From the sequence record NC_047777.1: a stretch of 40,291 bases of DNA; one strand, given 5' to 3'. The notes under the pieces are model-generated. The model did not search any database, was not told where the DNA came from, and saw only the letters and a program-made list of their open reading frames with translations. Position 1 is the stretch's first letter; each line of letters begins with the position of its first letter. This document shows, piece by piece, positions 3,077 through 39,802 of the stretch. Made by a program: the position numbers and the translations under genes. This stretch comes from Escherichia phage ZG49.

Positions 3077-3094
3077 TTAACTATCACTATAGGA
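3077..3094 (+). promoter_or_regulatory. Phage RNAP promoter TTAACTATCACTATAGGA, upstream of the RNAP gene
   Basis: Matches the 18-bp consensus found at 10 other intergenic sites; predicted +1 at the first G of TATAGG. Confidence 0.65.
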
Positions 3095-3166
3095 CTCAAG
3101 GTCTAAGACTCCAAGTGAAAGACCAAAGAGACTCTAAGTGAAAGACTAATAACAAGGACTTTAAGT

Positions 3167-5848
3167 ATGAGCGTCATCTCTATTGACAAACACGACTTCT
3201 CTGATGTGTCGAACGCCATTGAGCCGTTTAACCTGCTGGCTGACCACTACGGGCAAGACCTTGCAGTCAAACAGCTTCAGCTTGAGCATGAGGCATATAC
3301 AGAAGGCGAGCGACGTTTCATCAAGAACCTTGAGCGACAGACTGAGCGCGGGGAACTGGCAGACAATCAGGTCGCCAAGCCTTTGATGCAGACTCTGGTC
3401 CCTAAGATTGCGCAAGCCGTCAGGGAGTGGCACGAAGGCCTAGACGGGAAGCTGTCAACCTCGCGTCCTAGCGTAGCGTTCACCATGTTGAGCACTGAAG
3501 AGAAGGCCGTAAAGGACCGCTCTATGCGCATCTCCTGTGAGTCCGCTGCGGTTATCATACTGAAGGTCATACTCTCCAAGCTGGTCAAGCCTGAAGGGAT
3601 ACCGATTACACCGATGTCCTCCGCGATAGGTCGCACACTTGAGGACGAAATCCGCTTCGGTCGCATCCGTGACAAAGAGAAGGAGCACTTCAAGAAGACG
3701 ATAGCTGAGAACCTGAACAAGCGAGTTGGGGCATCCTACAAGAAAGCCTACATGCAAGCGGTCGAGGCGTCCATGCTGGAGCAAGGCCAACTGGAAGATG
3801 CATGGGGGACTTGGAGTCCTACAGAGGCTGTCCACGTTGGCATCAAGATGCTCGAGATTGTCATCCAGTCAACACAACTGGTCGAGCTTAAGCGGTACGG
3901 TGCTGGTAATGCAGCGGCTGACGTAGAGATGGTCCACCTGTCAGACTTCTGGGTCAAGAAGATGGCACAACGAGGATTCAGCCTTGCGGGTATCGCCCCA
4001 GTCTACCAGCCTTGCGTCGTTCCACCTAAGCCGTGGACTGGTGTCGTAGGTGGTGGGTACTGGGCCAAAGGTCGCAGACCGTTACCATTGATTCGCTTAG
4101 GGTCTAAGTCTGCGGTAGCACGTTATGAAGACGTATACATGCCTGAAGTCTATGACGCTGTGAACATCATTCAGAATACACCTTGGAAAGTTAACAAGAA
4201 GGTTCTGGACGTGGTGAACATGGTCGAGAAGTTGAACAACACGCCTATTGATGACATCCCTCAGATGGAACCGCTGAAGCCTGAGGACTATGCTGGTGAG
4301 ACCGAGGAGGAACTCAAGGCATGGAAGAAGGCTGCTGCTGGTATCTATCGCCGCGAGAAGGCCAGACAGTCACGCAGATTATCACTGAGCTTTATCGTTA
4401 ACCAAGCAAACAAGTTCTCTCAGTTCAAGACCATCTGGTTCCCGTACAACATGGATTGGCGTGGTCGTGTCTACGCTGTCCCGATGTTCAACCCTCAGGG
4501 TAACGACATGCAGAAGGGTCTCCTGACGCTGGCAGTCGGCAAGCCTATTGGTGCTGACGGTTTCAAATGGCTGAAGGTCCACGGTGCAAACTGTGCGGGT
4601 GTCGATAAAGTCACCTTCGATGAGCGCATCAAGTGGGTGGAAGACAACCACGAAAACATCATGGCTGCTGCTAAGGCACCGATGGATAGTATTGAGTGGT
4701 GGGGCAAGTTAGACTCTCCGTTCTGTTTCCTCGCGTTCTGCTTCGAGTATGCTGGCGTAATGCACCACGGCCTGTCTTACTCCTGCTCGCTGCCGATAGC
4801 GTTCGATGGGTCCTGCTCTGGTATTCAGCACTTCAGTGCGATGCTTCGTGACCACATCGGTGGACATTCAGTAAACCTGACGCCATCCGGTAAGGTACAA
4901 GACATCTACCGCATTGTGTCTGACCGCATTGAGGAGGAGCTTAAAGTCCTGCTGATTAACGGTACTGACAACGAGATGGTCACTCACGAGGATAAGAAAA
5001 CTGGTGAGATTACCGAACGTATCAAGCTGGGGACACGAGAGCTGGCCCGTCAGTGGCTGACATACGGTATGTCACGCAAGGTCACTAAGCGTTCAGTCAT
5101 GACTCTGGCATACGGGTCAAAAGAGTACGGCTTCGCAGACCAAGTTTACGAGGACATCGTGATGCCAGCGATTGACTCAGGGTCTGGCGCTATGTTCACT
5201 GAACCAAGCCAAGCGTCTCGCTTCATGGCAAAGATGATTTGGGAAGCTGTGAGTGTGACAGTAGTTGCTGCGGTTGACGCGATGAAGTGGCTTCAAGGTG
5301 CTGCCAAGCTGCTGGCTGCTGAGGTGAAGGACAAGAAGACTGGAGAAATCCTGAAGCCTTGCCTTCCGGTACACTGGGTCACACCTGATGGGTTCCCGGT
5401 CTGGCAGGAGTACCGCAAGAAGGATACCACTCGTCTGAACCTGATGTTCTTAGGGTCATTCAATCTTCAGCCTACCGTCAACAGAGGTACGAAGAAAGAG
5501 CTGGACAAGCACAAGCAGGAGTCAGGCATTAGCCCTAACTTCGTCCACTCACAAGATGGTAGCCACCTGCGGAAGACTGTAGTCCACACTCACCGCAAGT
5601 ATGGCGTGATGTCATTCGCAGTGATTCACGATAGCTTCGGGACCATCCCTGCTGACGCTGAGTATCTGTTCCGTGGTGTCCGTGAGACGATGGTCGAGAC
5701 ATACCGCGATAACGATGTGCTGCTTGACTTCTACGAGCAGTTTGAATACCAGCTTCATGAAAGCCAGCGCGACAAGTTGCCTGAGCTTCCGAAGAAAGGT
5801 AAACTGAATATCGAAGACATCTTGTCTTCAGACTTTGCATTCGCTTAA
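3167..5848 (+). CDS. Single-subunit DNA-directed RNA polymerase (gp1-like, 893 aa)
   Basis: Near-colinear similarity to T7 RNAP; C-terminus ...HSQDGSHLRKTVV...HDSFGT...SDFAFA matches the T7 C-terminus. Confidence 0.97.
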   Translation: MSVISIDKHDFSDVSNAIEPFNLLADHYGQDLAVKQLQLEHEAYTEGERRFIKNLERQTERGELADNQVAKPLMQTLVPKIAQAVREWHEGLDGKLSTSRPSVAFTMLSTEEKAVKDRSMRISCESAAVIILKVILSKLVKPEGIPITPMSSAIGRTLEDEIRFGRIRDKEKEHFKKTIAENLNKRVGASYKKAYMQAVEASMLEQGQLEDAWGTWSPTEAVHVGIKMLEIVIQSTQLVELKRYGAGNAAADVEMVHLSDFWVKKMAQRGFSLAGIAPVYQPCVVPPKPWTGVVGGGYWAKGRRPLPLIRLGSKSAVARYEDVYMPEVYDAVNIIQNTPWKVNKKVLDVVNMVEKLNNTPIDDIPQMEPLKPEDYAGETEEELKAWKKAAAGIYRREKARQSRRLSLSFIVNQANKFSQFKTIWFPYNMDWRGRVYAVPMFNPQGNDMQKGLLTLAVGKPIGADGFKWLKVHGANCAGVDKVTFDERIKWVEDNHENIMAAAKAPMDSIEWWGKLDSPFCFLAFCFEYAGVMHHGLSYSCSLPIAFDGSCSGIQHFSAMLRDHIGGHSVNLTPSGKVQDIYRIVSDRIEEELKVLLINGTDNEMVTHEDKKTGEITERIKLGTRELARQWLTYGMSRKVTKRSVMTLAYGSKEYGFADQVYEDIVMPAIDSGSGAMFTEPSQASRFMAKMIWEAVSVTVVAAVDAMKWLQGAAKLLAAEVKDKKTGEILKPCLPVHWVTPDGFPVWQEYRKKDTTRLNLMFLGSFNLQPTVNRGTKKELDKHKQESGISPNFVHSQDGSHLRKTVVHTHRKYGVMSFAVIHDSFGTIPADAEYLFRGVRETMVETYRDNDVLLDFYEQFEYQLHESQRDKLPELPKKGKLNIEDILSSDFAFA

Positions 5849-5864
5849 CAGGGGAGAGAGAGTT

Positions 5865-6080: not shown

Positions 6081-6156
6081 CATACCTACAGTTACTGGCC
6101 TTGTGGCTGGGAGCACTCGCAGTATTCACTTTAATCCAACGCAGAAGAGGTTAACC

Positions 6157-6174
6157 TAAACTATCACTATAGGA
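6157..6174 (+). promoter_or_regulatory. Phage RNAP promoter TAAACTATCACTATAGGA (phi1.1-like position)
   Basis: Exact consensus; intergenic. Confidence 0.7.
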
Positions 6175-6182
6175 TTAGACTC

Positions 6183-6209
6183 AAGGTCATGACTCAAAGT
6201 CGTGGCCTT
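6183..6209 (+). promoter_or_regulatory. RNA hairpin (12-bp stem with G-U pairs, 3-nt loop); candidate RNase III processing site (R1.1-like)
   Basis: AAGGUCAUGACU / AGUCGUGGCCUU pair fully; motif AGACTCAAGGTCAT...GTGGCCTT..ATGATTA recurs at 13549 and 37381. Confidence 0.5.
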
Positions 6210-6246
6210 CATGATTAACCTAACTCATTCAATCAGGAGCTACACC

Positions 6247-6426: not shown

Positions 6427-6429
6427 GCC

Positions 6430-6681: not shown

Positions 6682-7736
6682 TGACTACGACTATTAAAAC
6701 TAACCCGCACCGCGCTGTAGATTACTCTGAGTCAGGAGTTACGAAAGCACTGGCAGCAGCCGGGTCGCTGGAAGCTGAAGTGAAGTATGATGGTGTGCGG
6801 CTGAACCTCCCGGTCTTCCCTACTGGTGAGACTCAATGGTTGAGCCGTGAGTCTAAACCTCTCCCAGCCCTTGAGTGGCTGTCAGTCCTTACCAACATCG
6901 ACAACATCGTCGGGGACCAGCAAAAAGCTAGCGACTGGCGGTGGTTCCTGAAGCAGGCTGGCTACGAAGGCACTGGTCTGATGATTGACGGTGAGGTCAT
7001 GGTAAAAGGAATGGACTTCAATACGTCTTCAGGTCTCATCCGAACGAAGTGGGTAAAGCAAAAGAACTTTGAGTTTTCAACTGGTGAGCACTGGGGTAAG
7101 GACTGGACGAAAGAGAAGCTACCATTCTGTCTGGACCAGAGGTTCATCAAGGTGGTCGTCTACGGTGTAGTGGACCTTAACGTCATCCTTGACCCGAAAG
7201 CCGAAGGTCCTATCCATAGCGTCACACGCCTGAAGGCCGAAGCTATCGTCCCTCTCCTCCAGAAATACTCCCCTGAAATCGACTGGGTTCTGTCTGAGTC
7301 ACACACGGTCTATGACCTTGAGTCGCTCAGCTCCCTGTACGAAGAGAAGCGGCTGGAAGGACATGAGGGTCTGGTAGTCAAGGACCCACTGGGTAAATAC
7401 AAGCGTGGCAAGAAGTCAGGCATGTGGAAGATGAAGCCAAGCGAAGAGGCAGACGGTCACGTTGTGCGCCCTGTGTGGGGTACGGATGGGTTAGCCAACG
7501 AAGGCATGGTCATCGGATTTGACGTTATGCTTGAGAACGGGATGGAGGTCTCCGCAACTAACATTAGTCGCGCCCTTATGTCCGAGTTCACGGAGAATGT
7601 TAAGTCAGACCCTGACTACTACAAGGGGTGGGCTTGCCAGATTACCTACATGGAGGAGACACCAGATGGCTCATTGCGACACCCCTCGTTCGACCAGTGG
7701 CGTGGAACTGAGGATAACCCGACCATTAAGAGCTAA
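6681..7736 (+). CDS. ATP-dependent DNA ligase (gp1.3-like)
   Basis: Adenylation motif KYDGVR; 351 aa versus T7 ligase 359 aa; conserved position. Confidence 0.9.
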   Translation: MTTTIKTNPHRAVDYSESGVTKALAAAGSLEAEVKYDGVRLNLPVFPTGETQWLSRESKPLPALEWLSVLTNIDNIVGDQQKASDWRWFLKQAGYEGTGLMIDGEVMVKGMDFNTSSGLIRTKWVKQKNFEFSTGEHWGKDWTKEKLPFCLDQRFIKVVVYGVVDLNVILDPKAEGPIHSVTRLKAEAIVPLLQKYSPEIDWVLSESHTVYDLESLSSLYEEKRLEGHEGLVVKDPLGKYKRGKKSGMWKMKPSEEADGHVVRPVWGTDGLANEGMVIGFDVMLENGMEVSATNISRALMSEFTENVKSDPDYYKGWACQITYMEETPDGSLRHPSFDQWRGTEDNPTIKS

Positions 7737-7745
7737 CTAAATGTC

Positions 7746-7783
7746 AACCCAGTGGTCTTAGGACTGCTGGGTTTCTTTGCTTG
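7746..7783 (+). terminator. Candidate intrinsic terminator (TE-like) after the ligase gene
   Basis: 7-bp stem AACCCAG/CTGGGTT followed by TTTCTTTGCTT; T7 places its early terminator after gene 1.3. Confidence 0.45.
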
Positions 7784-7820
7784 TGCTAGCAAGCTATCGT
7801 CTGGGCCACAAGCCTGACCC

Positions 7821-7838
7821 TAAGCTATCACTATAGGA
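7821..7838 (+). promoter_or_regulatory. Phage RNAP promoter TAAGCTATCACTATAGGA
   Basis: One mismatch to consensus; intergenic. Confidence 0.65.
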
Positions 7839-7867
7839 CAACCATAACTCGACCTAAGGAGGCCGAC

Positions 7868-8122
7868 ATGTTTAAGAACTTAATGTTCAATCGTTATACC
7901 AGTACATTCCACCTGTCTCACAACCCATTAGCTTGCATTAAGCGCAACGAGAAGCTGGGCTACTTCGGGAAGGCCGTTAAGCTGTCACCTACAGTCTTCG
8001 CTCTGATTACTCCGGGCAAAGCTGAAGAGGCTCGCCAGAAGCGTGCGACCCACGTACCTGTGGTCTACACTAAGTGGCCTCGAGTTCGTCTGTTCGTTGA
8101 GTTCGTGAAGGAGGTGTTCTGA
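7868..8122 (+). CDS. gp1.6-like hypothetical protein (84 aa)
   Basis: RBS AAGGAGG; position between ligase and gp1.7. Confidence 0.5.
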   Translation: MFKNLMFNRYTSTFHLSHNPLACIKRNEKLGYFGKAVKLSPTVFALITPGKAEEARQKRATHVPVVYTKWPRVRLFVEFVKEVF

Positions 8123-8854
8123 TGGGATGTATAGCTTGCTTAGAGAAACCAGAGGTAACTCCTACAGATGACCAACCTTCCACTGAGTCAATCGACGCTG
8201 TCCGCAAGCCGTCCCACTATCAGGTATTTGACGGAGTGGAGTCCATTGAGATTATCGCTCGGTCCATGACTGTCAGCGAGTTCCGTGGGTTCTGCATGGG
8301 TAACGTCCTGAAGTATCGACTCCGAGCTGGTAAGAAGTCCGAGCTGGCTACTATGGAGAAGGACCTGAACAAAGCGGACTTCTATCAGGAGCTGTTCGAC
8401 CTGAGCTGGGCTACTTCGGGAAGGCCGTTAAGCTGTCACCTACAGTCTTCGCTCTGATTACTCCGGGCAAAGCTGAAGAGGCTCGCCAGAAGCGTGCGAC
8501 CCACGTACCTGTGGTCTACACTAAGTGGCCTCGAGTTCGTCTGTTCGTTGAGTTCGTGAAGGAGGTGTTCTGATGGGATGTATAGCTTGCTTAGAGAAAC
8601 CAGAGGTAACTCCTACAGATGACCAACCTTCCACTGAGTCAATCGACGCTGTCCGCAAGCCGTCCCACTATCAGGTATTTGACGGAGTGGAGTCCATTGA
8701 GATTATCGCTCGGTCCATGACTGTCAGCGAGTTCCGTGGGTTCTGCATGGGTAACGTCCTGAAGTATCGACTCCGAGCTGGTAAGAAGTCCGAGCTGGCT
8801 ACTATGGAGAAGGACCTGAACAAAGCGGACTTCTATCAGGAGCTGTTCGACCTG
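7953..8854. repeat. Tandem duplication B: two identical 451-bp copies (7953-8403, 8404-8854)
   Basis: Direct reading; ORFs 8122-8457 and 8573-8881 share their first 94 aa. Confidence 0.9.
8122..8457 (+). pseudogene. Chimeric gp1.7 copy created by duplication B (native C-terminus replaced by out-of-frame gp1.6 sequence)
   Basis: Identical to 8573-8881 until ...QELFDL, then diverges at the duplication junction. Confidence 0.6.
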
Positions 8855-9009: not shown

Positions 9010-9164
9010 CTGACGTAGAGAAGAAATACATCGTTGAGCTTGAGGGTCGCGTTCAGTCCTTCGAGGTTCCGGTGTACGCAAAGTCTCTTGAAGAGGCTAC
9101 ACTGAAGTCCCAAGAGTATGAGGACGCTGGGTTTGTGGTCGGACGGATTCGTCCTGAGACCTAA
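9006..9164 (+). CDS. gp2-like inhibitor of host RNA polymerase (52 aa)
   Basis: [14 protein letters not shown]...[10 protein letters not shown] versus T7 gp2 SFEVPIYAETLDEA...AGFEVTRVRP; RBS AAGGAG before ATG 9006. Confidence 0.7.
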
Positions 9165-9179
9165 ACTATCACTGTAGGA
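9162..9179 (+). promoter_or_regulatory. Phage RNAP promoter variant TAAACTATCACTGTAGGA (phi2.5-like position)
   Basis: One mismatch (-3 G) to consensus. Confidence 0.5.
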
Positions 9180-9221
9180 CAGACGTCCAGTTCGTAACTT
9201 TAAAATAGGAGATTTACACCG

Positions 9222-9976: not shown

Positions 9977-10426
9977 ATGAGTAGAGGACATCAAGTAGGT
10001 GCTTATCGCTCTGGACTCGAAGCAAAGAACCAAGAGTGGCTTGAGAAGAATGGCGTAAAAGCTGAATACGAAGCATATAAAATAGGCTACGTAGTACCAT
10101 CCAGCGACCACTTCTACACACCAGATTTTATCCTTCCTAACGGTATCATCGTGGAGACCAAAGGTCTCTTCGATAGTGATGACCGTAAGAAGCACCTTCT
10201 GGTACGAGAACAGCACCCTGAGTTAGACATTCGGTTCGTGTTCTCAAGTTCACGCTCCAAGTTATACAAGGGGTCTCCGACCACGTATGGCGCATGGTGC
10301 GAAAAGAACGGCTTTAAGTTTGCCGACAAGTTTATCCCGGTTGAGTGGCTGAGAGAGGTGACTGTACGTCTACCTTCAGGTATTCTCATCCCCAAGAAGA
10401 AAGGAGTTAAGGATATTCGCACCTAA
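9977..10426 (+). CDS. Endonuclease I (gp3-like Holliday junction resolvase, 149 aa from ATG 9977)
   Basis: Strong similarity to T7 gp3 (GAYRSGLE, YTPDF, PNGI.VETKGL..SDDRKKHLL.REQHPELDIR.VFSSSR.KLYKGSPT); track ORF starts earlier at 9920. Confidence 0.85.
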   Translation: MSRGHQVGAYRSGLEAKNQEWLEKNGVKAEYEAYKIGYVVPSSDHFYTPDFILPNGIIVETKGLFDSDDRKKHLLVREQHPELDIRFVFSSSRSKLYKGSPTTYGAWCEKNGFKFADKFIPVEWLREVTVRLPSGILIPKKKGVKDIRT

Positions 10427-11009
10427 AGCGAGACCCTTAAGTTTATGGCTGAAAAATACTCAGTAAGTGAGACAACCATAAGTCGAATCAGGAACAACAA
10501 GAGGTGGAAATAATAATGGGAAGTAAAGTACAATTCATGCCACGCAAGTCAACTGACGCTATCTTCGTTCACTGTTCGGCTACCAAGCCAGAGATGGACA
10601 TCGGGGTAGAGACCATCCGTATGGTGTTCTCAAGTTCACGCTCCAAGTTATACAAGGGGTCTCCGACCACGTATGGCGCATGGTGCGAAAAGAACGGCTT
10701 TAAGTTTGCCGACAAGTTTATCCCGGTTGAGTGGCTGAGAGAGGTGACTGTACGTCTACCTTCAGGTATTCTCATCCCCAAGAAGAAAGGAGTTAAGGAT
10801 ATTCGCACCTAAAGCGAGACCCTTAAGTTTATGGCTGAAAAATACTCAGTAAGTGAGACAACCATAAGTCGAATCAGGAACAACAAGAGGTGGAAATAAT
10901 AATGGGAAGTAAAGTACAATTCATGCCACGCAAGTCAACTGACGCTATCTTCGTTCACTGTTCGGCTACCAAGCCAGAGATGGACATCGGGGTAGAGACC
11001 ATCCGTATG
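10238..11009. repeat. Tandem duplication C: two identical 386-bp copies (10238-10623, 10624-11009)
   Basis: Direct reading; ORF 10504-10812 has the lysozyme N-terminus fused to the endonuclease I C-terminus. Confidence 0.9.
10504..10812 (+). pseudogene. Chimeric ORF: lysozyme N-terminal 40 aa fused to endonuclease I C-terminal 62 aa
   Basis: N-terminus identical to 10890-11360 and C-terminus identical to 9920-10426; switch at the duplication junction. Confidence 0.6.
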
Positions 11010-11585: not shown

Positions 11586-11597
11586 TTCTTCAAAGAC

Positions 11598-11616
11598 TAA
11601 ACTATCACCTTAGGGA
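11598..11616 (+). promoter_or_regulatory. Degenerate phage promoter-like site TAAACTATCACCTTAGGGA upstream of gene 4
   Basis: Two mismatches in the -4/-3 core; position matches T7 phi3.8. Confidence 0.3.
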
Positions 11617-11665
11617 TGGGACCATGAGTCCTTTCCCTTTGTTCGCATTTGTGATTAAGGAGTGA

Positions 11666-15789: not shown

Positions 15790-16116
15790 ATGGGAGGTGT
15801 AGCAACCTTACGCTTCCATAAGATGCCTACTGGATGTATCGTCTGTGTATCACATCGTCGAAACCATGATGGATACTTTCGGTACACGGTAGGCTCTGCC
15901 CGTAAGCCTGGACGCAAGGCGTTTATGTTCCACCGATGGGTGTGGGAACAGAAGCGTGGGCCTATACCAGATGGCTATGAGATAGACCATTTGTGTTTGA
16001 ATCGTGGGTGCTGTAACGTAGAACATCTACAATGTATTCCAAAGCGTGATCACGTCATCAAGACGAACCGTGAGCGCAAACTTATTAAGAAGGAGAAGAC
16101 TAATGGCTATTACTAA
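15790..16116 (+). CDS. HNH family endonuclease (108 aa)
   Basis: H-N-H type motif region HRWVWE...DHLCLNRGCCNVEHL...H; immediately after DNAP. Confidence 0.75.
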   Translation: MGGVATLRFHKMPTGCIVCVSHRRNHDGYFRYTVGSARKPGRKAFMFHRWVWEQKRGPIPDGYEIDHLCLNRGCCNVEHLQCIPKRDHVIKTNRERKLIKKEKTNGYY

Positions 16117-17877: not shown

Positions 17878-17931
17878 GTCTAGCCGATAGTCATATCCTA
17901 TCAATCCAACAGTCATCCATAGGTGAAACAC

Positions 17932-17950
17932 TAAACTATCACTATAGGGA
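17932..17950 (+). promoter_or_regulatory. Phage RNAP promoter TAAACTATCACTATAGGGA (phi6.5-like)
   Basis: Exact consensus; intergenic. Confidence 0.7.
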
Positions 17951-18013
17951 CTTTAGGACCTAAGATATGACTATAAGATAGACTTTAGTCTTAACTTAAA
18001 GAGGAGATTCAAG

Positions 18014-19210: not shown

Positions 19211-20779
19211 ATGGCTGAACGTGAAGGGTTCGCTGCTGAAGGAGCCAAAGCGGTCTATGACCGACTGAAGAACGGTAGACAGCCATATGAGACACGCGCT
19301 CAGAACTGTGCTGCTGTCACTATCCCGTCACTGTTTCCTAAGGAGTCCGACAACTCGTCTACTGAGTACACAACTCCGTGGCAAGCTGTAGGTGCTCGCT
19401 GTTTGAACAACTTGGCTGCAAAGCTGATGTTGGCATTATTCCCTCAGTCACCGTGGATGCGACTGACAGTCTCCGAATATGAGGCCAAGACCTTGAGTCA
19501 GGACTCAGAGGCTGCTGCTCGTGTTGACGAAGGGCTGGCTATGGTCGAGCGTGTGTTGATGGCCTACATGGAGACTAACAGTTTCCGTGTCCCACTGTTC
19601 GAAGCTCTGAAGCAGCTTATCGTCTCCGGTAACTGTCTGCTCTACATTCCAGAGCCTGAACAAGGTACTTACAGTCCTATGCGAATGTACCGCTTAGTGT
19701 CCTACGTTGTTCAACGTGATGCTTTCGGTAATATCTTGCAGATTGTGACTCTCGACAAGGTAGCGTTTAGTGCTCTACCGGAAGACGTTAAGTCACAACT
19801 CAACGCAGACGACTATGAGCCTGACACAGAGCTGGAAGTATATACGCACATCTACCGTCAAGACGACGAGTATCTACGTTATGAAGAAGTGGAAGGCATT
19901 GAGGTAGCAGGGACCGAGGGTTCCTACCCACTGACTGCATGTCCATACATCCCGGTACGAATGGTTCGACTGGATGGTGAAGACTATGGTCGTTCTTACT
20001 GCGAGGAGTATCTGGGAGACCTGAACTCGCTGGAGACGATTACAGAAGCTATCACCAAAATGGCTAAGGTAGCCTCCAAGGTGGTGGGCCTCGTTAACCC
20101 GAACGGTATCACGCAACCTCGTCGTCTGAACAAGGCGGCTACAGGTGAGTTCGTTGCCGGTCGCGTTGAGGACATCAACTTCCTGCAACTGACTAAGGGT
20201 CAGGACTTTACGATTGCCAAGTCGGTGGCTGATGCTATCGAGCAACGTTTAGGCTGGGCCTTCCTTCTTAATAGTGCTGTTCAGCGTAATGCCGAGCGAG
20301 TCACTGCTGAAGAGATTCGTTATGTTGCTGGCGAACTGGAGGCGACCTTAGGTGGCGTGTACTCAGTACAATCCCAAGAGCTTCAGTTACCTATCGTCCG
20401 TGTGCTGATGAACCAACTTCAGTCTGCTGGCATGATTCCTGACCTTCCGAAAGAAGCGGTAGAGCCTACTGTCTCCACTGGTCTGGAAGCGTTAGGTCGT
20501 GGTCAGGACTTGGAGAAGCTAACTCAGGCGGTTAACATGATGACTGGTCTTCAGCCGCTATCTCAGGACCCGGACATCAACTTGCCGACCCTTAAGCTAC
20601 GACTCCTGAACGCTCTGGGTATCGACACCGCTGGCCTACTCCTGACGCAAGACGAGAAGATTCAGCGCATGGCTGAGCAGTCGTCTCAACAGGCAGTTGT
20701 CCAAGGTGCTAGTGCTGCTGGTGCTAACATGGGTGCTGCTGTAGGTCAGGGAGCTGGTGAGGACATGGCTCAAGCCTAA
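19211..20779 (+). CDS. Head-to-tail connector / portal protein (gp8-like)
   Basis: 522 aa versus T7 gp8 536 aa; conserved position before scaffold and capsid; RBS AAGGAGG. Confidence 0.9.
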   Translation: MAEREGFAAEGAKAVYDRLKNGRQPYETRAQNCAAVTIPSLFPKESDNSSTEYTTPWQAVGARCLNNLAAKLMLALFPQSPWMRLTVSEYEAKTLSQDSEAAARVDEGLAMVERVLMAYMETNSFRVPLFEALKQLIVSGNCLLYIPEPEQGTYSPMRMYRLVSYVVQRDAFGNILQIVTLDKVAFSALPEDVKSQLNADDYEPDTELEVYTHIYRQDDEYLRYEEVEGIEVAGTEGSYPLTACPYIPVRMVRLDGEDYGRSYCEEYLGDLNSLETITEAITKMAKVASKVVGLVNPNGITQPRRLNKAATGEFVAGRVEDINFLQLTKGQDFTIAKSVADAIEQRLGWAFLLNSAVQRNAERVTAEEIRYVAGELEATLGGVYSVQSQELQLPIVRVLMNQLQSAGMIPDLPKEAVEPTVSTGLEALGRGQDLEKLTQAVNMMTGLQPLSQDPDINLPTLKLRLLNALGIDTAGLLLTQDEKIQRMAEQSSQQAVVQGASAAGANMGAAVGQGAGEDMAQA

Positions 20780-20794
20780 ACTATCACTATAGGA
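20777..20794 (+). promoter_or_regulatory. Phage RNAP promoter TAAACTATCACTATAGGA (phi9-like)
   Basis: Exact consensus. Confidence 0.7.
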
Positions 20795-20875
20795 ACTTAG
20801 ACAAGATTCACAAAGCATTAGGCCGGGTGAGACTCCCGGTCGGTTCCTATCATCAACTTAAAGGAGAATGACTCA

Positions 20876-21760: not shown

Positions 21761-21763
21761 GAC

Positions 21764-21781
21764 TAAACTATCACTATAGGA
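21764..21781 (+). promoter_or_regulatory. Phage RNAP promoter TAAACTATCACTATAGGA (phi10-like)
   Basis: Exact consensus directly upstream of the capsid gene. Confidence 0.75.
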
Positions 21782-21885
21782 GACCAAGAGACAGACTCAA
21801 GGTTCCCCTATTACTTCAGTCCATACGGATTGGGCGTACAGCAAGTAATAAACTTTATCTTTCAATTGAATAGGAGAATTATCAT

Positions 21886-22948: not shown

Positions 22949-23086
22949 GGCCCTCTCTACAGAGGGTCCTACCTTAGAGACGTACAGTTCTACGGTGGGG
23001 ACCAGCCTTAAGGTTGACTTACCTGAGCTTTCAGATGTGACCGATTGGTCGCTGCTTGAGGTGACTACGCCTGAGTGGTTTTTTTT
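22949..23086 (+). terminator. Candidate late terminator region (Tphi-like): 8-bp hairpin 22949-22968 and a T8 tract 23079-23086
   Basis: Hairpin GGCCCTCT/AGAGGGTC just after gp10 stop; T8 run further downstream; no clean hairpin directly abutting the T-run. Confidence 0.3.
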
Positions 23087-26127: not shown

Positions 26128-26154
26128 CTTATTGAATGGCCTATAGATTTACCT

Positions 26155-26173
26155 TAACTATCACTATAGGGAC
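26155..26173 (+). promoter_or_regulatory. Phage RNAP promoter TTAACTATCACTATAGGGA (phi13-like)
   Basis: Consensus match; intergenic. Confidence 0.7.
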
Positions 26174-26213
26174 TATAGGCCCTTTAAGTTATAATACTTT
26201 AATAGGAGACTTT

Positions 26214-26540
26214 ATGTATATTCGCAAGGCTACGGAACCGGATGTCCACTACTTTCTGTGGCATCTTTCAGCAGATGATGTTAATGAGTGCAAAGCAAAC
26301 TACGGGTCAACCGTTGGTCTCTCTGAAAGACTGCTTAAGCACCTATCTCCGTCATCTGTGGTTTTAACGAACGGTGTAGGCGAAGTGTTTGCCTATGGTG
26401 GAAACCAAGGGGATAACGTATGGTTCTTGACTTCAGGTCTGGTCTATAAGCTGAGACCTAAAGAGAAGCGAGAGTTCATAAAGCGTATCTCTGAGTACAG
26501 GGACTTAATGTTAGACCAATACGGGACCATCTGGAACTGA
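26214..26540 (+). CDS. gp13-like internal virion/assembly protein (108 aa from ATG 26214)
   Basis: ATG 26214 with AGGAG RBS downstream of the promoter; the track ORF start at 26136 would precede the promoter. Confidence 0.55.
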   Translation: MYIRKATEPDVHYFLWHLSADDVNECKANYGSTVGLSERLLKHLSPSSVVLTNGVGEVFAYGGNQGDNVWFLTSGLVYKLRPKEKREFIKRISEYRDLMLDQYGTIWN

Positions 26541-26585
26541 GTATGTGCTATATGCAGGACTTCAGGCCCTAGCAGAGGACTATGC

Positions 26586-26735
26586 GTGGACCATTGCCAT
26601 GACTCCGGTAAGGTGCGTGGTATTCTGTGCCACACCTGCAACATTAAGCTGACACGTCGAAACTATCCGTCTAACTGTGATAATTTTGACGAGAAGGCTG
26701 CCGAGTATCTGGCTACCAGCCAGAAGGGGGATTAG
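26586..26735 (+). CDS. Endonuclease VII-like (His-Me finger) small protein; start unclear (GTG 26586, or continuous with gp13 frame from 26541)
   Basis: CAICRTSG...CVDHCHDSGKVRGILCHTCNIKL...AAEYL fits the CxxC...DHxH..GKVRGLLCxxCN pattern of T4 endonuclease VII family proteins; same frame as gp13 across one TGA. Confidence 0.45.
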   Translation: MDHCHDSGKVRGILCHTCNIKLTRRNYPSNCDNFDEKAAEYLATSQKGD

Positions 26736-26762
26736 AAAATTTGCGAGCCAATTAGCATTGGG

Positions 26763-32600: not shown

Positions 32601-33512
32601 ACTGGTAGTAAGCGTAAGTTCGATGACCGCTGGCTTAAGACCGCTGGTATCTCTGACGAGCAGTGGAAGGGCATTAAGTCCCTAATCCGTGAGTCAGTGA
32701 CTCGTGGTCCAGACGGGAAGTACACCATCAAGGATAAGAAGGCGTTCAGTCAGGACCCAAGGGCTATGGACCTATGGCGTATGGGTGACACCATCGCAGA
32801 TGAAACGTTACTCCGTCCTCATAAGCTGTCCAACATGGACGCCAAGGCTTATGGTCCTCTCGCTAAGACTGTCCTTCAGTTTAAGAACTTCGTCATCAAG
32901 TCCATCAATGGTCGAACCATGCGAACATTCTATAACGCCACGAAGAACAACCGAGCGATGGACGCTGCACTGTCTACTGTGATGTCTATGGGTCTGGCTG
33001 GTATCTACTACATGGCTCAGGCGCACGTCAAGGCTTACGCTATGCAGGACGGTCGAGACCGAGATTATCTCAAGCAAGCTCTGGACCCAACGATGATTGG
33101 CTATGCGGCCCTGTCCCGTAGTTCACATCTGGGTGGACCACTTGGGGTAGCTAACATTCTAGGTGGCATCGCTGGGTATGAGGACACTAAGATGCTCCGT
33201 TCGTCTATCCTCCCGCGTTCACCTACAGAGAAACCCGAACGTGCCATCCCATATGGTGCGGCTACAAGTGACCCTGTGATGAATGTCGTTGGTAACTTCT
33301 TGGAGCAGGTCCCGGCTTTCGGCTATGCTGCTAACGTTGGCGCTTCGGCATACAACTTGGCTGGCTACCTCAAGGCTGATACTCGTGTCAACGAGCGGGA
33401 CTACATGACCGGGATGTATAATACGTTCCGTGAACTGGTTCCGAACGACCCCATTACCCAGAAGTTGCTGCTTGGAACGTTTGAGGAGCAAGGTATCCAC
33501 ATCAAGGACTAA
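29625..33512 (+). CDS. Internal virion protein D (gp16-like) with a divergent N-terminal domain
   Basis: From about residue 190 onward colinear with T7 gp16 (RSTFFGF, TPTRWN, VVTGGSP.NL, RLEARETARN, LVRSPTGMQSGASGK, NSFLEARNLFDSD, RRVNGDIAIM, LLNGTTNYLLDA, RAMDLWR, YALSRSS); first about 145 aa unlike the T7 transglycosylase domain; ATG 29625. Confidence 0.9.
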   Translation: MATRGIRNNNPGNIRVGKDQWEGMTGDDGAFVTFDSPESGVRALGKNLLSYGRQGYDSIEKIINRWAPPNENDTKAYIDSVVAATGIPATQSLDLSDHDTLSSLAQAISFHETGSRYDPEVYQKGVARALNGISPKTPPVSANVFDALTEGLKAKPKVALGENLPTAAGLNIEGQAPEAPNESFGEMFYKSTGDTMQEREDRSTWFGFGAATEAEVKNSMVGVAIRAGKTEDSLDVIGDVFNPTRWNNHKWTREELDQIRNAGVLPQYYGVITGGSPQNLTELINLALENQKLDQEKAKAGTGAQLAAGVIGAGVDPLTYVPIAGQVGKGGKLVNKMFTVAAQSGALAGVSEMARTSVAGGDAHVAEAILGGALFGGGMTAIADGLGRALGRNTNEFAGPATRLEARETARNVDGQDLSRLPIQEGEQTFSHQGVKFADVPNEPGSVRLEDGSILIGENPLNPKTRQVFDEVIEPERAAAGVNLGGLTEIGLKLLRSENPEIRGVAADLVRSPTGMQSGASGKIGTTASDVFERLRAVDHRFYNDIDDAVTEALKDPYFQTAFWRDSGAFRQDIYQRVSMAIEDGSGNLKAELTPGELKVYDLLKNQFDAKREMMENPAMFGRPDAQSIFPGSRFKGTYVPHVYSNQMKELYIKELGSPEALQEAIKKSWLTSYASRPEVKKRVDEALLEADPTLTPEGLAAAVDKYANDKAYGISHTEQFERSSVMEENINGLVGLENNSFLEARNLFDSDMSIVLPNGQTFSVNNLREWDMDKIVPAYNRRVNGDIAIMAGTGKTTKEMKDLVETMMNKAGDDGKLKGEVSTLRDTLKILTGRSRRDGADDAAFATVMRTMTDLSFFAKNAYMGVQNLTEIGGMLARGNVRAMLHGVPIFRDLAFRNKKVGASEIKDLHNVLFGKELDDSIRPSKQDVIDRLRSYSDLGRGTATALGTAKYYTGELAVRSPFTKVLNGTTNYLLDAGRQGFLSDIVEHSLTGSKRKFDDRWLKTAGISDEQWKGIKSLIRESVTRGPDGKYTIKDKKAFSQDPRAMDLWRMGDTIADETLLRPHKLSNMDAKAYGPLAKTVLQFKNFVIKSINGRTMRTFYNATKNNRAMDAALSTVMSMGLAGIYYMAQAHVKAYAMQDGRDRDYLKQALDPTMIGYAALSRSSHLGGPLGVANILGGIAGYEDTKMLRSSILPRSPTEKPERAIPYGAATSDPVMNVVGNFLEQVPAFGYAANVGASAYNLAGYLKADTRVNERDYMTGMYNTFRELVPNDPITQKLLLGTFEEQGIHIKD

Positions 33513-33527
33513 ACTATCACTATAGGA
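33510..33527 (+). promoter_or_regulatory. Phage RNAP promoter TAAACTATCACTATAGGA (phi17-like)
   Basis: Exact consensus upstream of the tailspike gene. Confidence 0.75.
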
Positions 33528-33576
33528 AACGGGAGGCGCTACCATAGGTCTCCGTTTAAATAACAAAGGAGGCATA

Positions 33577-35637
33577 ATGTCCACGATTACACAATTCCCT
33601 TCAGGAAACACTCAGTACAGGATTGAGTTCGACTACCTAGCCAGAACGTTTGTTGTTGTTACGCTGGTGAATAGCTCTAACCCTACCCTGAACCGTGTAC
33701 TGGAAGTTGGTCGAGATTACCGATTCCTTAACCCAACGATGATTGAGATGTTGGTTGACCAATCAGGTTTCGACATCGTTCGTATTCACCGTCAGACTGG
33801 AACTGACTTAGTGGTAGACTTCAGGAATGGCTCAGTGTTGACAGCTAGTGACCTGACCAATTCAGAGCTTCAGGCTATCCATATTGCAGAAGAAGGTCGA
33901 GACCAAACGGTTGACTTAGCGAAGGAATATGCCGATGCTGCTGGTAGCTCTGCTGGCAACGCTAAGGATAGCGAGGACGAAGCACGCCGAATCGCTGCGA
34001 GTATCAGGGAAGCTGGTCTAATTGGCTATATTACCCGTCGCTCCTTCGAGAAAGGCTACAACGTTACAACATGGAGCGAGGTCCTGCTATGGGAAGAGGA
34101 TGGTGATTATTACCGCTGGGATGGTACGCTTCCAAAGAACGTTCCTGCTGGTTCAACTCCTGAAACTTCCGGTGGGATTGGATTAGGTGCGTGGGTTAGT
34201 GTTGGTGATGCTGCTTTAAGAAGTCAGATTTCAAACCCGGAAGGGGCAATACTCTACCCGGAATTGCAGATGGCAAGATGGCGTGATGAGGGTGATGTTC
34301 GAGGCTGGGGTGCTAAAGGGGATGGTGTAACAGATAGTACGGAGAATATAGCTGCTTCACTAAATTCTCAAAAAGCTGTCGTAGCATCAGAAGGTGTATT
34401 CTCTAGTTCTGGTATTAATAGTAATTACTGTAACTTAGACGGTAGAGGCAGTGGTGTACTAAGTCACCGTTCAAGTACAGGTAACTACTTAGTATTTAAC
34501 AATCTACGCTCAGGTCGCTTAAGTAATATTACGGTAGAAAGTAATAAGGCGACCGATACCACTCAAGGGCAGCAGGTATCTCTTGCTGGTGGCAGTGATG
34601 TTACTATAAGTGATGTTAATTTCTCAAACGTTAAGGGCGCTGGTTTCAGTTTAATCACATACCCTAATGATGCACCCTCTGATGGGCTTATGATTAAAGG
34701 CATTCGAGGTAGCTACTCCGGCTATGCTACTAATAAGGCGGCTGGATGCATACTTGCTGATTCCTCAGTTAACTCCCTCATAAATAACGTCATTGCTAAG
34801 AACTACCCTCAGTTCGGGGCTGTAGAACTGAAAGGTACAGCCAGTTATAACATAGTCAGCAATGTTATAGGGGCAGACTGCCAGCATGTAACTTACAACG
34901 GTACAGAAGGGTCAATAGCTCCCTCTAACAACCTTATCAATGGGGTAGTGGCTAATAATCCTAAATATGCAGCGGTTGTTGCAGGCAAAGGTAGTACCAA
35001 CTTAATCTCCGATGTGCTTGTAGATTTCTCAACCTCTGATGCTAGGCAGGCTCATGGTGTTACAGTAGAAGGTTCTGATAACGTCATAAATAATGTGCTT
35101 ATGTCAGGGTGTGATGGTACTAACTCTTTAGGGCAAGCTCAGACTGCTACAATTGCGCGCTTTATAGATACGGCTAATAACAACTATGCGTCTGTATTTC
35201 CTAGCTACAGTGCTACAGGTGTTATTACTTTCGAATCAGGTTCTACCCGTAACTTCGTAGAGGTAAAGCATCCGGGAAGGAGAAACGACCTTCTCAGTGC
35301 TACTGGTACTATTGAAGGTAAAGTTACTATTGACGGCACTAGTAATAGCAACGTAGTGCACGCTCCTGCATTAGGACAGTACATAGGCAGTATGTCCGGT
35401 AGGTTCGAATGGCGGATTAAGTCCATGTCACTTCCGTCAGGCGTTCTTACCTCGGCTGATAAGTACAGAATGCTTGGGGATGGTGCTGTGTCATTAGCTG
35501 TAGGTGGGGGTACTTCTTCTCAAGTTCGCCTATTTACTTCTGATGGTACTTATCGGACAGTATCACTCACCAACGGTAACGTGCGTCTTCCTACCAGTAG
35601 CACAGGTTATTTGCAGTTAGGTTCTAGCTCCCTCTAA
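33577..35637 (+). CDS. Tailspike (gp17-like), N-terminal 686-aa fragment truncated by tandem duplication D
   Basis: N-terminal 150 aa resemble the T7 gp17 adaptor domain (EFDYLARTFVVVTL, DYRF, VDFRNGSVL.ASDL, IAEEGRD); then a beta-helix-like region (WGAKGDGVTD); reading frame breaks at the duplication junction at 35625. Confidence 0.8.
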   Translation: MSTITQFPSGNTQYRIEFDYLARTFVVVTLVNSSNPTLNRVLEVGRDYRFLNPTMIEMLVDQSGFDIVRIHRQTGTDLVVDFRNGSVLTASDLTNSELQAIHIAEEGRDQTVDLAKEYADAAGSSAGNAKDSEDEARRIAASIREAGLIGYITRRSFEKGYNVTTWSEVLLWEEDGDYYRWDGTLPKNVPAGSTPETSGGIGLGAWVSVGDAALRSQISNPEGAILYPELQMARWRDEGDVRGWGAKGDGVTDSTENIAASLNSQKAVVASEGVFSSSGINSNYCNLDGRGSGVLSHRSSTGNYLVFNNLRSGRLSNITVESNKATDTTQGQQVSLAGGSDVTISDVNFSNVKGAGFSLITYPNDAPSDGLMIKGIRGSYSGYATNKAAGCILADSSVNSLINNVIAKNYPQFGAVELKGTASYNIVSNVIGADCQHVTYNGTEGSIAPSNNLINGVVANNPKYAAVVAGKGSTNLISDVLVDFSTSDARQAHGVTVEGSDNVINNVLMSGCDGTNSLGQAQTATIARFIDTANNNYASVFPSYSATGVITFESGSTRNFVEVKHPGRRNDLLSATGTIEGKVTIDGTSNSNVVHAPALGQYIGSMSGRFEWRIKSMSLPSGVLTSADKYRMLGDGAVSLAVGGGTSSQVRLFTSDGTYRTVSLTNGNVRLPTSSTGYLQLGSSSL

Positions 35638-36333
35638 CAACCTTATCAATGGGGTAGTGGCTAATAATCCTAAATATGCAGCGGTTGTTGCAGGCAAAGG
35701 TAGTACCAACTTAATCTCCGATGTGCTTGTAGATTTCTCAACCTCTGATGCTAGGCAGGCTCATGGTGTTACAGTAGAAGGTTCTGATAACGTCATAAAT
35801 AATGTGCTTATGTCAGGGTGTGATGGTACTAACTCTTTAGGGCAAGCTCAGACTGCTACAATTGCGCGCTTTATAGATACGGCTAATAACAACTATGCGT
35901 CTGTATTTCCTAGCTACAGTGCTACAGGTGTTATTACTTTCGAATCAGGTTCTACCCGTAACTTCGTAGAGGTAAAGCATCCGGGAAGGAGAAACGACCT
36001 TCTCAGTGCTACTGGTACTATTGAAGGTAAAGTTACTATTGACGGCACTAGTAATAGCAACGTAGTGCACGCTCCTGCATTAGGACAGTACATAGGCAGT
36101 ATGTCCGGTAGGTTCGAATGGCGGATTAAGTCCATGTCACTTCCGTCAGGCGTTCTTACCTCGGCTGATAAGTACAGAATGCTTGGGGATGGTGCTGTGT
36201 CATTAGCTGTAGGTGGGGGTACTTCTTCTCAAGTTCGCCTATTTACTTCTGATGGTACTTATCGGACAGTATCACTCACCAACGGTAACGTGCGTCTTCC
36301 TACCAGTAGCACAGGTTATTTGCAGTTAGGTTC
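34916..36333. repeat. Tandem duplication D: two identical 709-bp copies (34916-35624, 35625-36333) inside the tailspike gene
   Basis: Direct reading; ORFs 33577-35637 and 35657-36817 share about 230 identical residues. Confidence 0.9.
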
Positions 36334-36817
36334 CAATGCAATGACCCCAGATAGTACTAATACATACGCATTAGGTTCCGCAAGTCGAGCATGGTCTGGC
36401 GGTTTTACTCAATCAGCATTCACTGTTGTCTCAGATGCTAGGGATAAAACAGAGCCTCTTAATATCTCAGATGCTTTACTGGATGCTTGGTCTGAAGTTG
36501 ACTTTGTGCAGTTTCAGTACTTGGACCGAATTGAGGAGAAGGGTGCAGACTCAGCTAGATGGCACTTCGGCATCATCGCTCAGCGAGCTACGGAGGCCTT
36601 CGAACGTCACGGTATAGATGCACATCGCTATGGCTTCCTGTGCTTCGACAGTTGGGATGATGTGTACGAGGAAGATGCCAATGGCTCTCGTAAACTGATT
36701 ACACCAGCAGGTTCCCGCTATGGTATTCGTTACGAGGAAGTACTGATATTAGAGGCTGCGTTGATGCGGCGTACTATTAAGCGTATGCAGGAAGCATTAG
36801 CTGTTATGTCTAAGTGA
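35657..36817 (+). CDS. Tailspike C-terminal fragment (386 aa) including an intramolecular-chaperone-like domain
   Basis: C-terminus GSASRAWSGGFTQSAFTVVSDARDKTEP... resembles peptidase S74-type chaperone domains of phage tailspikes; begins at an internal Met created by the duplication. Confidence 0.65.
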   Translation: MANNPKYAAVVAGKGSTNLISDVLVDFSTSDARQAHGVTVEGSDNVINNVLMSGCDGTNSLGQAQTATIARFIDTANNNYASVFPSYSATGVITFESGSTRNFVEVKHPGRRNDLLSATGTIEGKVTIDGTSNSNVVHAPALGQYIGSMSGRFEWRIKSMSLPSGVLTSADKYRMLGDGAVSLAVGGGTSSQVRLFTSDGTYRTVSLTNGNVRLPTSSTGYLQLGSNAMTPDSTNTYALGSASRAWSGGFTQSAFTVVSDARDKTEPLNISDALLDAWSEVDFVQFQYLDRIEEKGADSARWHFGIIAQRATEAFERHGIDAHRYGFLCFDSWDDVYEEDANGSRKLITPAGSRYGIRYEEVLILEAALMRRTIKRMQEALAVMSK

Positions 36818-36921
36818 GTAATACTGGTACGGTATTTTCGCACAATGAAATCGTTGAACACGCTAACCAACGTATGTAACAACTTTGGGTCACGGACGAC
36901 CCGCTTTAAACTGGAGGTTTT

Positions 36922-37376: not shown

Positions 37377-37387
37377 GTGTTAGACTC

Positions 37388-37414
37388 AAGGTCATTACTA
37401 TATGTAGTGGCCTT
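37388..37414 (+). promoter_or_regulatory. RNA hairpin (10-bp stem); candidate RNase III site (R18.5-like)
   Basis: AAGGUCAUUA / UAGUGGCCUU; same flanking motif as 6183 and 13556. Confidence 0.45.
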
Positions 37415-37477
37415 TATGGTTAACACTAACTAGTGGAGGCGACTCTACGTGAAATCTGATAAACCGGGAGGACAACT

Positions 37478-37927: not shown

Positions 37928-39687
37928 GTAAAGATTTAGTGGCGCGTCGGGCGCTAGTGACTACCCGTATGAAGGCAGACTTCGTGTTCTTCCTGTTCGT
38001 CCTGTGGAAAGCCTTGTCACTCCCAGTCCCGACTCGCTGTCAGATTGACATGGCGAAGAAACTATCGGCTGGGGACAACAGGCGTTTCATCCTACAGGCG
38101 TTCCGTGGTATCGGGAAGTCCTTCATTACGTGTGCCTTCGTGGTCTGGAAGCTATGGAACAACCCAGACTTGAAGTTCATGATTGTGTCGGCCTCAAAGG
38201 AACGAGCCGATGCTAACTCCATCTTCATCAAGCGAATCATCGACCTCATGCCTCAGCTTAAGGAACTCAAACCTAAGCAGGGGCAGCGAGATGCGGTTAT
38301 CAGCTTCGACGTTGGACCAGCCAAGCCAGACCACTCACCTTCGGTTAAGTCCGTTGGTATCACTGGTCAGTTGACTGGTAGTCGTGCTGACATCCTGATT
38401 GCCGATGACGTGGAGGTTCCGAACAACTCAGCGACTCAGGCTGCACGAGACCGTCTGTCAGAGCTTGTGAAAGAGTTCGACGCTATCCTGAAGCCGGGAG
38501 GTACAATCATCTATCTGGGTACTCCTCAGAACGAGATGACCTTGTATCGTGAGCTGGAAGGCCGTGGATACACCACTACCATCTGGCCTGCTCGTTATCC
38601 ACGCGACAGGAAGGACTGGCAGTCTTACGGCGACCGTCTGGCACCGATGCTTCAGGCAGAGCTTGAAGAGGACCCTGAGTCCTTCTACTGGCGTCCGACC
38701 GATGAAGTACGATTCGATGATACGGACCTGAAGGAACGTGAGCTGTCCTATGGTAAAGCTGGCTTCGCTCTACAGTTCATGCTTAACCCTAACCTGAGTG
38801 ATGCTGAGAAGCACCCTCTGAAGCTCCGTGACCTTATCGTAGCCGACTTGGACCCAGCGTCTAGCCCAATGGTATACCAATGGCTTCCTAACCCTCAGAA
38901 CAAGCGTGAGGACGTTCCTAACGTTGGACTCATGGGTGACTCATACCACACGTATCAGACTGTAGGTTCTGCCTTCAGTTCGTACACCCAGAAGATTCTG
39001 GTCATTGACCCTAGTGGTCGTGGTAAGGATGAAACTGGTTATGCGGTACTGTACCAGCTAAACGGCTACATCTTCGCTATGGAAGTTGGCGGTATGCGAG
39101 GTGGCTATGAAGACTCTACGCTGGAAGCCTTGGCTAAGATTGGTCGTAAGTGGAAGGTCAACGAATACGTCATTGAGGGTAACTTCGGTGATGGTATGTA
39201 CCTTGAGCTATTCAAGCCTGTAGCTTCCCGTATTCATCCTGCTGCTGTAACTGAAGTGAAGAGTAAGGGTCAGAAGGAACTCCGCATCTGTGACGTTCTG
39301 GAGCCTATCATGGGGTCTCACCGACTTATCGTCAACGCTTCTGCTATCGTCCAAGACTACCAGACAGCCTCTGATAAGGATGGTGTGCGTAACCCTATCT
39401 ACTCTCTCTTCTATCAGATGACCCGTATCTCTCGTGAACGTGGAGCACTGGCACACGATGACCGACTTGATGCGCTGGCTATCGGTGTACAGTTCTTCGT
39501 TGAGTCTATGGCTAAGGATGCCAACAAAGGCGAACGTGAAGTCACTGAGGAGTGGCTGGAGGAACAGATGGAGAACCCACGGAAAGGCTTTGAGTCCATC
39601 CACACTGAGTTCTGGGACAATGGGGTCCGGGTAACTCACGATACTGACGACGAGCTGGGGCTAGGGTCCTACGTTACGTTCCACTAG
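37924..39687 (+). CDS. Terminase large subunit (gp19-like), apparent TTG start
   Basis: Near-colinear similarity to T7 gp19 ([91 protein letters not shown]); N-terminus aligns from the TTG at 37924, 7 nt after GGAGG. Confidence 0.93.
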
Positions 39688-39783
39688 CTGAATGAATAAC
39701 TATAGGCGAAAACTGAATTAATAAGCAGTTAGTAACCTATAGTTACTACCAGTCTAACCTACTGTTTTACAAGGAGTTTGGAC

Positions 39784-39802
39784 TTAACTATCACTATAGG
39801 GA
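39784..39802 (+). promoter_or_regulatory. Phage RNAP promoter TTAACTATCACTATAGGGA (phiOR-like)
   Basis: Consensus match about 90 bp before the right terminal repeat. Confidence 0.7.

Follow-up and report, generated by a model that had tools for sequence, protein, structure and literature searches.

Eleven repeats in the genome of Escherichia phage ZG49 correspond to phage promoters of the known K1F type

The genome record of Escherichia phage ZG49 (NC_047777.1; 40,291 nucleotides [nt], analyzed here as a whole and referred to as the window) contains an 18-mer, TAAACTATCACTATAGGA, that recurs at dispersed positions, which raises the question of what these repeats do and whether, together with the single-subunit RNA polymerase (RNAP) encoded by the phage as gp1, they make up a potentially new orthogonal RNAP/promoter pair. 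The reading that we favor, with a probability of roughly 96%, is that the repeats are the phage's class II and class III promoters, recognized by its own gp1, and that they have the specificity of phage K1F and its genus, Kayfunavirus. The K1F-type pair has already been described, engineered, and biochemically characterized, and the finding is not new. Our own evidence consists of the sequences, the synteny with K1F, the identity of the recognition loop, and the covariation of loop and promoter across relatives; activity in vitro and in vivo was established by others for chimeras carrying the K1F loop and for the enzyme of the Kayfunavirus Ro45lw.

The 18-mer has 11 matches in the window when up to three mismatches are allowed, all of them on the + strand, starting at positions 3077, 6157, 7821, 9162, 11598, 17932, 20777, 21764, 26154, 33510, and 39784. 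The original prediction, made from the sequence alone, had listed the same 11 sites, with a single coordinate (26155, corrected here to 26154) off by one. By chance, a mean of 0.03 matches is expected, and dinucleotide-preserving shuffles never reached 11. With +1 defined as the first G of GG, a weight matrix spanning −17 to +6 was derived from the 11 sites and used to scan both strands of the whole window. The 11 sites scored between 30.3 and 37.6 bits, and no weaker additional promoters were found on either strand, the runner-up reaching 15.2 bits at 17959 and all remaining matches at most 7.3 bits. This clean gap in bit score (at least 30 versus at most 15.2) therefore indicates that the promoter set is complete and comprises exactly 11 members. 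The runner-up is a degenerate promoter-like sequence, CCTAAGATATGACTATAAGATAG (17959 to 17981), which lies 27 nt 3' of the phi6.5 promoter and is the sole subthreshold match in the genome.

Across the 11 sites, the C at −16, the T at −15, the A at −13, CTATCAC at −11 to −5, and TAGG at −2 to +2 are invariant, and positions −17 to −13 read nCT(A/T)A. ACTAT at −12 to −8 (ACTATC at −12 to −7) stands upstream of a CACTATAGG core at 10 of the 11 sites, the exception being phi1.6, which has a G at −12. The exact 18-mer CTAAACTATCACTATAGG was also found in 22 contigs of IMG/VR, mostly of 39 to 40 kb. The sites have the general properties of T7-group promoters, being elements of ∼23 bp on a single strand, situated 5' of middle and late genes and having a −8 to +2 core related to TCACTATAGG. 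A Shine-Dalgarno sequence and an ATG follow 32 to 107 nt downstream of each site (186 nt for phiOR). That the sites are always intergenic, as originally stated, is essentially correct, apart from three at which the upstream gene (gp2, 9162 to 9164; gp8, 20777 to 20779; gp16, 33510 to 33512) uses the TAA at −15 to −13 as its stop codon; the overlap with the preceding gene is confined to this stop codon. At site 26154, the longest open reading frame (ORF) begins upstream of the promoter, and homology to K1F gp13 places the gene start at 26214.

Dispersed repeats could in principle be signals of another kind, such as sites for RNA processing, replication, or packaging, and RNase III-type hairpins do adjoin some of them (6175 to 6219). 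The chance that this explains the repeats is close to negligible: they have the core TCACTATAGG in common with T7 promoters, they lie on one strand upstream of genes at T7 promoter positions, and the same sequence drives initiation in vitro by an RNAP that is 94% identical to gp1 (PMC12272871). The sites are thus best regarded as promoters.

The first of them, the promoter before gene 1 (3075 to 3097; +1 at 3092; 35.0 bits), lies 75 nt upstream of the RNAP gene and is identical in K1F (DQ111067) at 2476. It is followed by a phi1.1-like promoter (6155 to 6177; +1 at 6172; 34.0 bits; K1F 5554), which is located upstream of a gp1.15-like gene, gene 1.2, and the ligase gene and has an RNase III-type hairpin immediately after it. 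The variant base of phi1.6 (7819 to 7841; +1 at 7836; 33.0 bits), the G at −12, is also carried by K1F at 7185, and the homologous site of Ro45lw is annotated as phi1.6. Similarly, phi2.5 (9160 to 9182; +1 at 9177; 33.6 bits), which overlaps the gp2 stop codon, has a G at −3 that recurs in K1F at 8501. The promoter of gene 4, which encodes the primase/helicase, occupies the T7 phi3.8/4 position (11596 to 11618; +1 at 11613; 30.3 bits; K1F 10868) and is the weakest match, with a C at −4 and a T at −3; it is the same as in K1F from −25 to +15. Next come phi6.5 at a class III position (17930 to 17952; +1 at 17947; 36.2 bits; K1F 17179), phi9 at the gp8 stop codon (20775 to 20797; +1 at 20792; 36.9 bits; K1F 20000), and phi10 (21762 to 21784; +1 at 21779; 35.3 bits; K1F 20999), with the major capsid gene downstream. 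They are followed by phi13 (26152 to 26174; +1 at 26169; 34.9 bits; K1F 25323), upstream of the gene 13 start at 26214, and by phi17 (33508 to 33530; +1 at 33525; 37.6 bits; K1F 32599), which overlaps the gp16 stop codon and precedes the tailspike gene. The last, phiOR (39782 to 39804; +1 at 39799; 35.4 bits; K1F 38854), is near the right genome end, and window positions 39782 to 39802 reproduce verbatim the published Ro45lw minimal promoter, ACTTAACTATCACTATAGGGA. As in T7, the sites that fit the consensus perfectly precede structural genes (6.5, 9, 10, 13, and 17) and, as phiOR, the right end. Three of the five class II sites (phi1.6, phi2.5, and phi4), which precede DNA-metabolism genes, are off consensus.

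The enzyme predicted to read these promoters is encoded by gene 1 (3167 to 5848, + strand), a DNA-dependent RNAP of 893 amino acids with the Pfam domains RNA_pol and RPOL_N. It is identical to K1F gp1 at 876 of 893 residues (98%, without gaps) and to Ro45lw gp1 at 837 of 893 (93.7%). The C-terminal 180 residues were aligned with T7 and T3 gp1 taken from RefSeq records, and alignment with T7, T3, and K1F located the promoter-recognition beta-hairpin, TTRLNLMFLGSFNLQPTV, at codons 754 to 771 (5426 to 5479, + strand). This segment aligns with T7 Q744 to I761, QTRLNLMFLGQFRLQPTI, and is identical to the hairpin of K1F. In T7 RNAP, base-specific contacts are made by four residues, R746, N748, R756, and Q758 (PMC11880802). 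Their equivalents in the window are R756, N758, N766, and Q768, the notable change being that of T7 R756 to asparagine. T7 positions 754, 756, and 761 are occupied in the hairpin by S, N, and V (Q754S, R756N, and I761V), which matches the published definition of the K1F graft.

On the promoter side, positions −11 to −8 read GACT in T7, CCCT in T3, and CTAT in the window; the T7 and T3 sequences had been given correctly in the original prediction, which was also right that the sites are promoters of a T7-like RNAP encoded by the phage and that their recognition sequence departs from T7 and T3, namely at −12 to −9. The specificity is accordingly not that of T7 or T3 proper, since the window combines ACTAT with N766, as against CGACT (T7) or ACCCT (T3) with arginine at T7 position 756. 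It had also been argued that the specificity-loop region differs from that of T7. The T7 peptide quoted in support was correct; the window peptide set beside it, QPTVNRGTKKELDKHKQ, corresponds to T7 residues 758 to 774 and is the C-terminal flank of the loop, mostly downstream of the base-contacting residues and including only one of the four (Q758); the determinants Q754S, R756N, and I761V lie upstream.

Relative to K1F, QPTVNRGTKKELDKHKQ contains one difference, R773 instead of K, at a position that aligns with T7 T763. Residue 773 falls within the extended specificity loop (the T7 739 to 770 region), and R773, or another of the 16 further differences from K1F gp1, might thus shift promoter preference and make the enzyme functionally distinct. 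We consider this very unlikely. The window promoters are unchanged from those of K1F between −20 and +2, and residue 773 lies outside the Q744-to-I761 segment that is sufficient to transfer K1F specificity. The comparison with relatives points the same way. Among 80 IMG/VR loci encoding gp1 relatives, the loop sequence was tabulated against the modal −12 to −7 hexamer of the promoter-like sites. In every locus with an S/N loop (the window, K1F, Ro45lw, and 18 IMG/VR loci), the modal hexamer was ACTATC. Loci with a GSFNLQPT(V/I) loop keep ACTATC whether the residues that follow are NKGT, NRGT, NKGS, or NKGM, so that residues 773 to 775 vary (K/R, G, T/S/M) without a change in the promoter; R773 itself is present in two further loci (L010 and L012), again with ACTATC promoters. 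R773 as the mark of a new specificity was therefore rejected, given that it recurs with unchanged promoters and is situated outside the grafted hairpin.

Where the loop does change at contact positions, the promoter changes with it: T7-type loops pair with CGACTC, and D/R loops pair with ACCCTC. This covariation supports the proposed mode of reading, and no effect of R773 on the promoter is apparent. Two loci, L021 and L047 (IMG/VR 3300045988_000030 and 2974571109_000001), encode RNAPs 87 to 88% identical to that of the window, with the loop TTRLDLMFLGTFRLQPTV, in which T7 positions 748 and 756 are occupied by D and R, and have T3-type ACCCTC promoters. They are an instance of specificity having switched naturally among RNAPs closely related to those of Kayfunavirus.

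The possibility raised by the original prediction, a novel orthogonal pair with a new, uncharacterized promoter specificity, draws on real differences, in that the promoter departs from T7 at −16 to −14 and −12 to −9 and from T3 at −10 and −9 and the loop region departs from T7. We regard it as highly improbable. K1F has the same promoters (from −20 to +2) and the same recognition hairpin, and its specificity is published and engineered (PMC3458549, PMC4299498, and PMC11880802). In the work of Temme et al. (2012; PMC3458549), loops of phage RNAPs were mined together with promoters predicted by PHIRE, the K1F loop was placed in T7 RNAP, and positions −12 to −7 of the T7 promoter were exchanged for the K1F consensus, which gave an active pair; this chimeric T7(K1F) pair was orthogonal against T7, T3, and N4 (PMC3458549). 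The graft is summarized elsewhere as 754S, 756N, and 761V with the cognate −12 to −8 sequence ACTAT (Table 2 of PMC11880802, from which we also took the published K1F promoter string), and the orthogonality of that RNAP set is given as limited, with a value of 8 (PMC11880802). The same graft was used again as the K1FR sigma fragment (Segall-Shapiro et al., 2014; PMC4299498). The native RNAP of Ro45lw was purified, and its minimal promoter, identical to that of the window, was determined as ACTTAACTATCACTATAGGGA, with a G at +1 mapped by 5'-end sequencing (Takatsuki et al., 2025; PMC12272871). In addition, a genome note from 2026 reports the repeat consensus CTWAACTATCACTATAGG in another Kayfunavirus. 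Comparison of the 18-mer with characterized phage promoters thus found a known match, the outcome that the original prediction had itself named as telling against novelty, and the supposedly uncharacterized consensus is the K1F/Kayfunavirus promoter, already characterized through K1F, the graft of Temme et al., and Ro45lw.

Assignment of the repeats to promoters read by gp1 with K1F specificity has several points to contend with. The activity of this gp1 at these sites is deduced from relatives, and the enzyme has 56 residues that differ from the characterized Ro45lw RNAP and 17 that differ from K1F gp1. The arginine in place of lysine at position 773 is within the extended specificity loop, and subtle quantitative differences are possible. 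Finally, site 11598, with three mismatches, is a possibly weak promoter. Judged by its sequence, gp1 would nevertheless be expected to be active on the window's own sites.

By homology to T7, the early genes at the left end, gene 1 among them, would be transcribed by the host RNAP up to a TE-like early terminator, a hairpin with a T-rich tail directly 3' of the ligase gene (7746 to 7773, + strand; fold of −20.5 kcal/mol, z of −3.75) at the T7 TE position; this hairpin is predicted to mark the end of early transcription by the host enzyme. Next, gp1 would bind each ∼23-bp promoter and initiate at all 11, class II and class III alike. The beta-hairpin (residues 754 to 771) is expected to read ACTATC at −12 to −7 through the major groove, TATA at −4 to −1 would melt, and the RNA would begin at the first G of GG(A/G). 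Loss of R756, which in T7 contacts the −9 base pair, is paired with the C-to-A substitution at −9, corresponding to the known K1F specificity. A hairpin with a U8 tail (23051 to 23086, + strand) lies in the interval from gene 10 to gene 11 and folds weakly (z of −0.9). The annotations of T7 (Tphi) and Ro45lw place a terminator at this same point, and the hairpin is likely Tphi. A further family of repeated hairpins is present at 6175 to 6219, 37380 to 37424, and 1262 to 1306. The first two copies are 84% identical, and these RNase III-type hairpins fold with −17 and −22 kcal/mol (z of −3.3 and −4.8, respectively). Copies of the family occupy the positions of the T7/T3 RNase III sites R1.1 and R18.5. 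A search of the whole window against Rfam at gathering thresholds gave zero matches, the repeated hairpins included.

The promoter in front of gene 1 is the point at which the layout departs from that of T7. The original prediction had placed all sites at positions matching T7 promoters; this is correct for 10 of the 11, and the site at 3077 is without a counterpart in T7 or T3, which have no matching phage promoter there and have E. coli promoter C instead. Each Kayfunavirus locus that we compared keeps the element at −91 of gene 1, as a CACTAAAGG variant in the Ro45lw subgroup, and its upstream flank is 83% identical to the flank of phiOR (39754 to 39800). It should let the RNAP transcribe its own gene, that is, provide positive autoregulation. 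That such a positive autoregulatory loop alters the early-to-middle switch, or that R773 subtly retunes promoter preference, seems to us improbable; neither, if true, would place the promoters in another family.

The window is the genome of a Kayfunavirus, a K1F-like coliphage of the T7 group. Its RNAP region has 95 to 98% nucleotide identity to many Kayfunavirus genomes, including LS3, LS2, ECG4, YZ1, and K1F, and the remaining genome shows the same similarity; searching it with the K1F proteins (tblastn) recovered genes 0.1 to 19.4 in the order typical of the T7 group. Positions 1 to 401 and 39891 to 40291 are identical over 401 bp. We rejected this end repeat as the true terminal repeat, given that K1F position 1 and the 178-bp direct terminal repeat of K1F map to 492 to 670. 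A gp19.4 homologue is situated inside the end overlap (95 to 250, equal to 39985 to 40140). These two observations show the window to be a circularly permuted assembly whose ends overlap and whose terminal repeat is collapsed.

The genome also contains four tandem duplications, perfect in sequence, with junction homology of at most 3 nt and with no length a multiple of three. They measure 385 bp (1519 to 1903 and 1904 to 2288), 451 bp (7953 to 8403 and 8404 to 8854), 386 bp (about 10238 to 10623 and 10624 to 11009), and 709 bp (34916 to 35624 and 35625 to 36333). K1F, Ro45lw, IME177, and vB_EcoP-R1 have a single copy of each duplicated segment where homologous. The 709-bp duplication lies within gene 17 and results in two ORFs (33577 to 35637, 686 amino acids, and 35657 to 36817, 386 amino acids); removal of one copy restores an ORF of 843 amino acids, equal in length to gene 17 of vB_EcoP-R1. 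The duplication junction was present neither in GenBank phage records nor in IMG/VR. An artefact of assembly or construction seems the more likely explanation for the duplications, rather than a viable phage that carries them.

The tailspike gene (33577 to 36817) is modular, the first 263 residues being 93.5% identical to K1F gp17. The deduplicated protein has the Pfam domains Phage_T7_tail, Tail_spike_N, and Peptidase_S74, and the C-terminal Peptidase_S74 chaperone domain is ∼30% identical to the C-terminal domain of the K1F endosialidase. The K1F tailspike is an endosialidase, whereas that of the window has a K5-lyase-like module, and the sequence flanking the duplication junction gives matches to genes annotated as "K5 lyase." The modular tailspike and these matches therefore suggest that the host is probably K5-capsulated rather than K1-capsulated E. 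coli. Near gene 13, ∼200 nt (26545 to 26745) unrelated to K1F and vB_EcoP-R1 stand in place of the 3' end of the gene, and gp13 is truncated at 26540. This stretch includes a 49-amino-acid fragment (26586 to 26735) matching the C-terminal half of Pfam Endonuclease_7 and homologous to "recombination endonuclease VII" genes that occupy this place in Penshu1, ST21, and other phages; it looks like the remnant of a homing endonuclease. An HNH_3 homing endonuclease gene (15790 to 16116), 43% identical to the K1F endonuclease, lies 3' of gene 5. In K1F, gene 5 is split with the endonuclease inside it, whereas gene 5 of the window is uninterrupted.

The value of these results is mainly in annotation, as 11 phage promoters, the RNAP, and the terminators can be placed confidently in this genome, and K1F-type specificity is confirmed as a conserved feature of the genus. 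Synthetic biology can already draw on the pair in the form of K1F-loop T7 chimeras and the purified Ro45lw RNAP, and the genome adds only a near-identical allele.

How closely the system resembles those already known can be read from four comparisons. In T7, the layout is as in the window, with promoters of ∼23 bp on one strand, the core TCACTATAGG, and TE and Tphi placed alike. According to the T7 RefSeq annotation, 10 of the 11 window promoters are at the places of phi1.1, 1.6, 2.5, 3.8, 6.5, 9, 10, 13, 17, and OR; T7 has 17 promoters versus 11 in the window, and T7 phiOL, 1.3, 1.5, 4c, 4.3, and 4.7 are without a window counterpart. T7 promoters differ from those of the window at −16 to −14 and at −12 to −9, and the T7 hairpin has R756 where the window has N; the T3 promoter differs at −10 and −9. 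K1F has 11 matches to the same 18-mer, which correspond one to one to those of the window at the same gene junctions. All 11 sites are identical from −20 to +2, the deviant phi1.6, phi2.5, and gene 4 promoters included, and five differ farther out (phi1.6 at −22/−21, and phi1.6, phi6.5, phi9, phi10, and phiOR 3' of +2). Its gp1 has 17 amino acid differences from that of the window, K773R included. The T7(K1F) chimera with its PK1F promoter has the same hairpin residues and the same ACTAT at −12 to −8 as the window; it retains the T7 backbone and the T7 sequence TAATA at −17 to −13, where the natural promoters of the window have nCT(A/T)A. Ro45lw belongs to the same genus, and 10 promoter-like sites were found in its genome with a regular expression, six of which are annotated as promoters in its record. 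Its loop differs from that of the window by M760L, R773K, and T775S, and the residues at the four base-contacting positions are the same.

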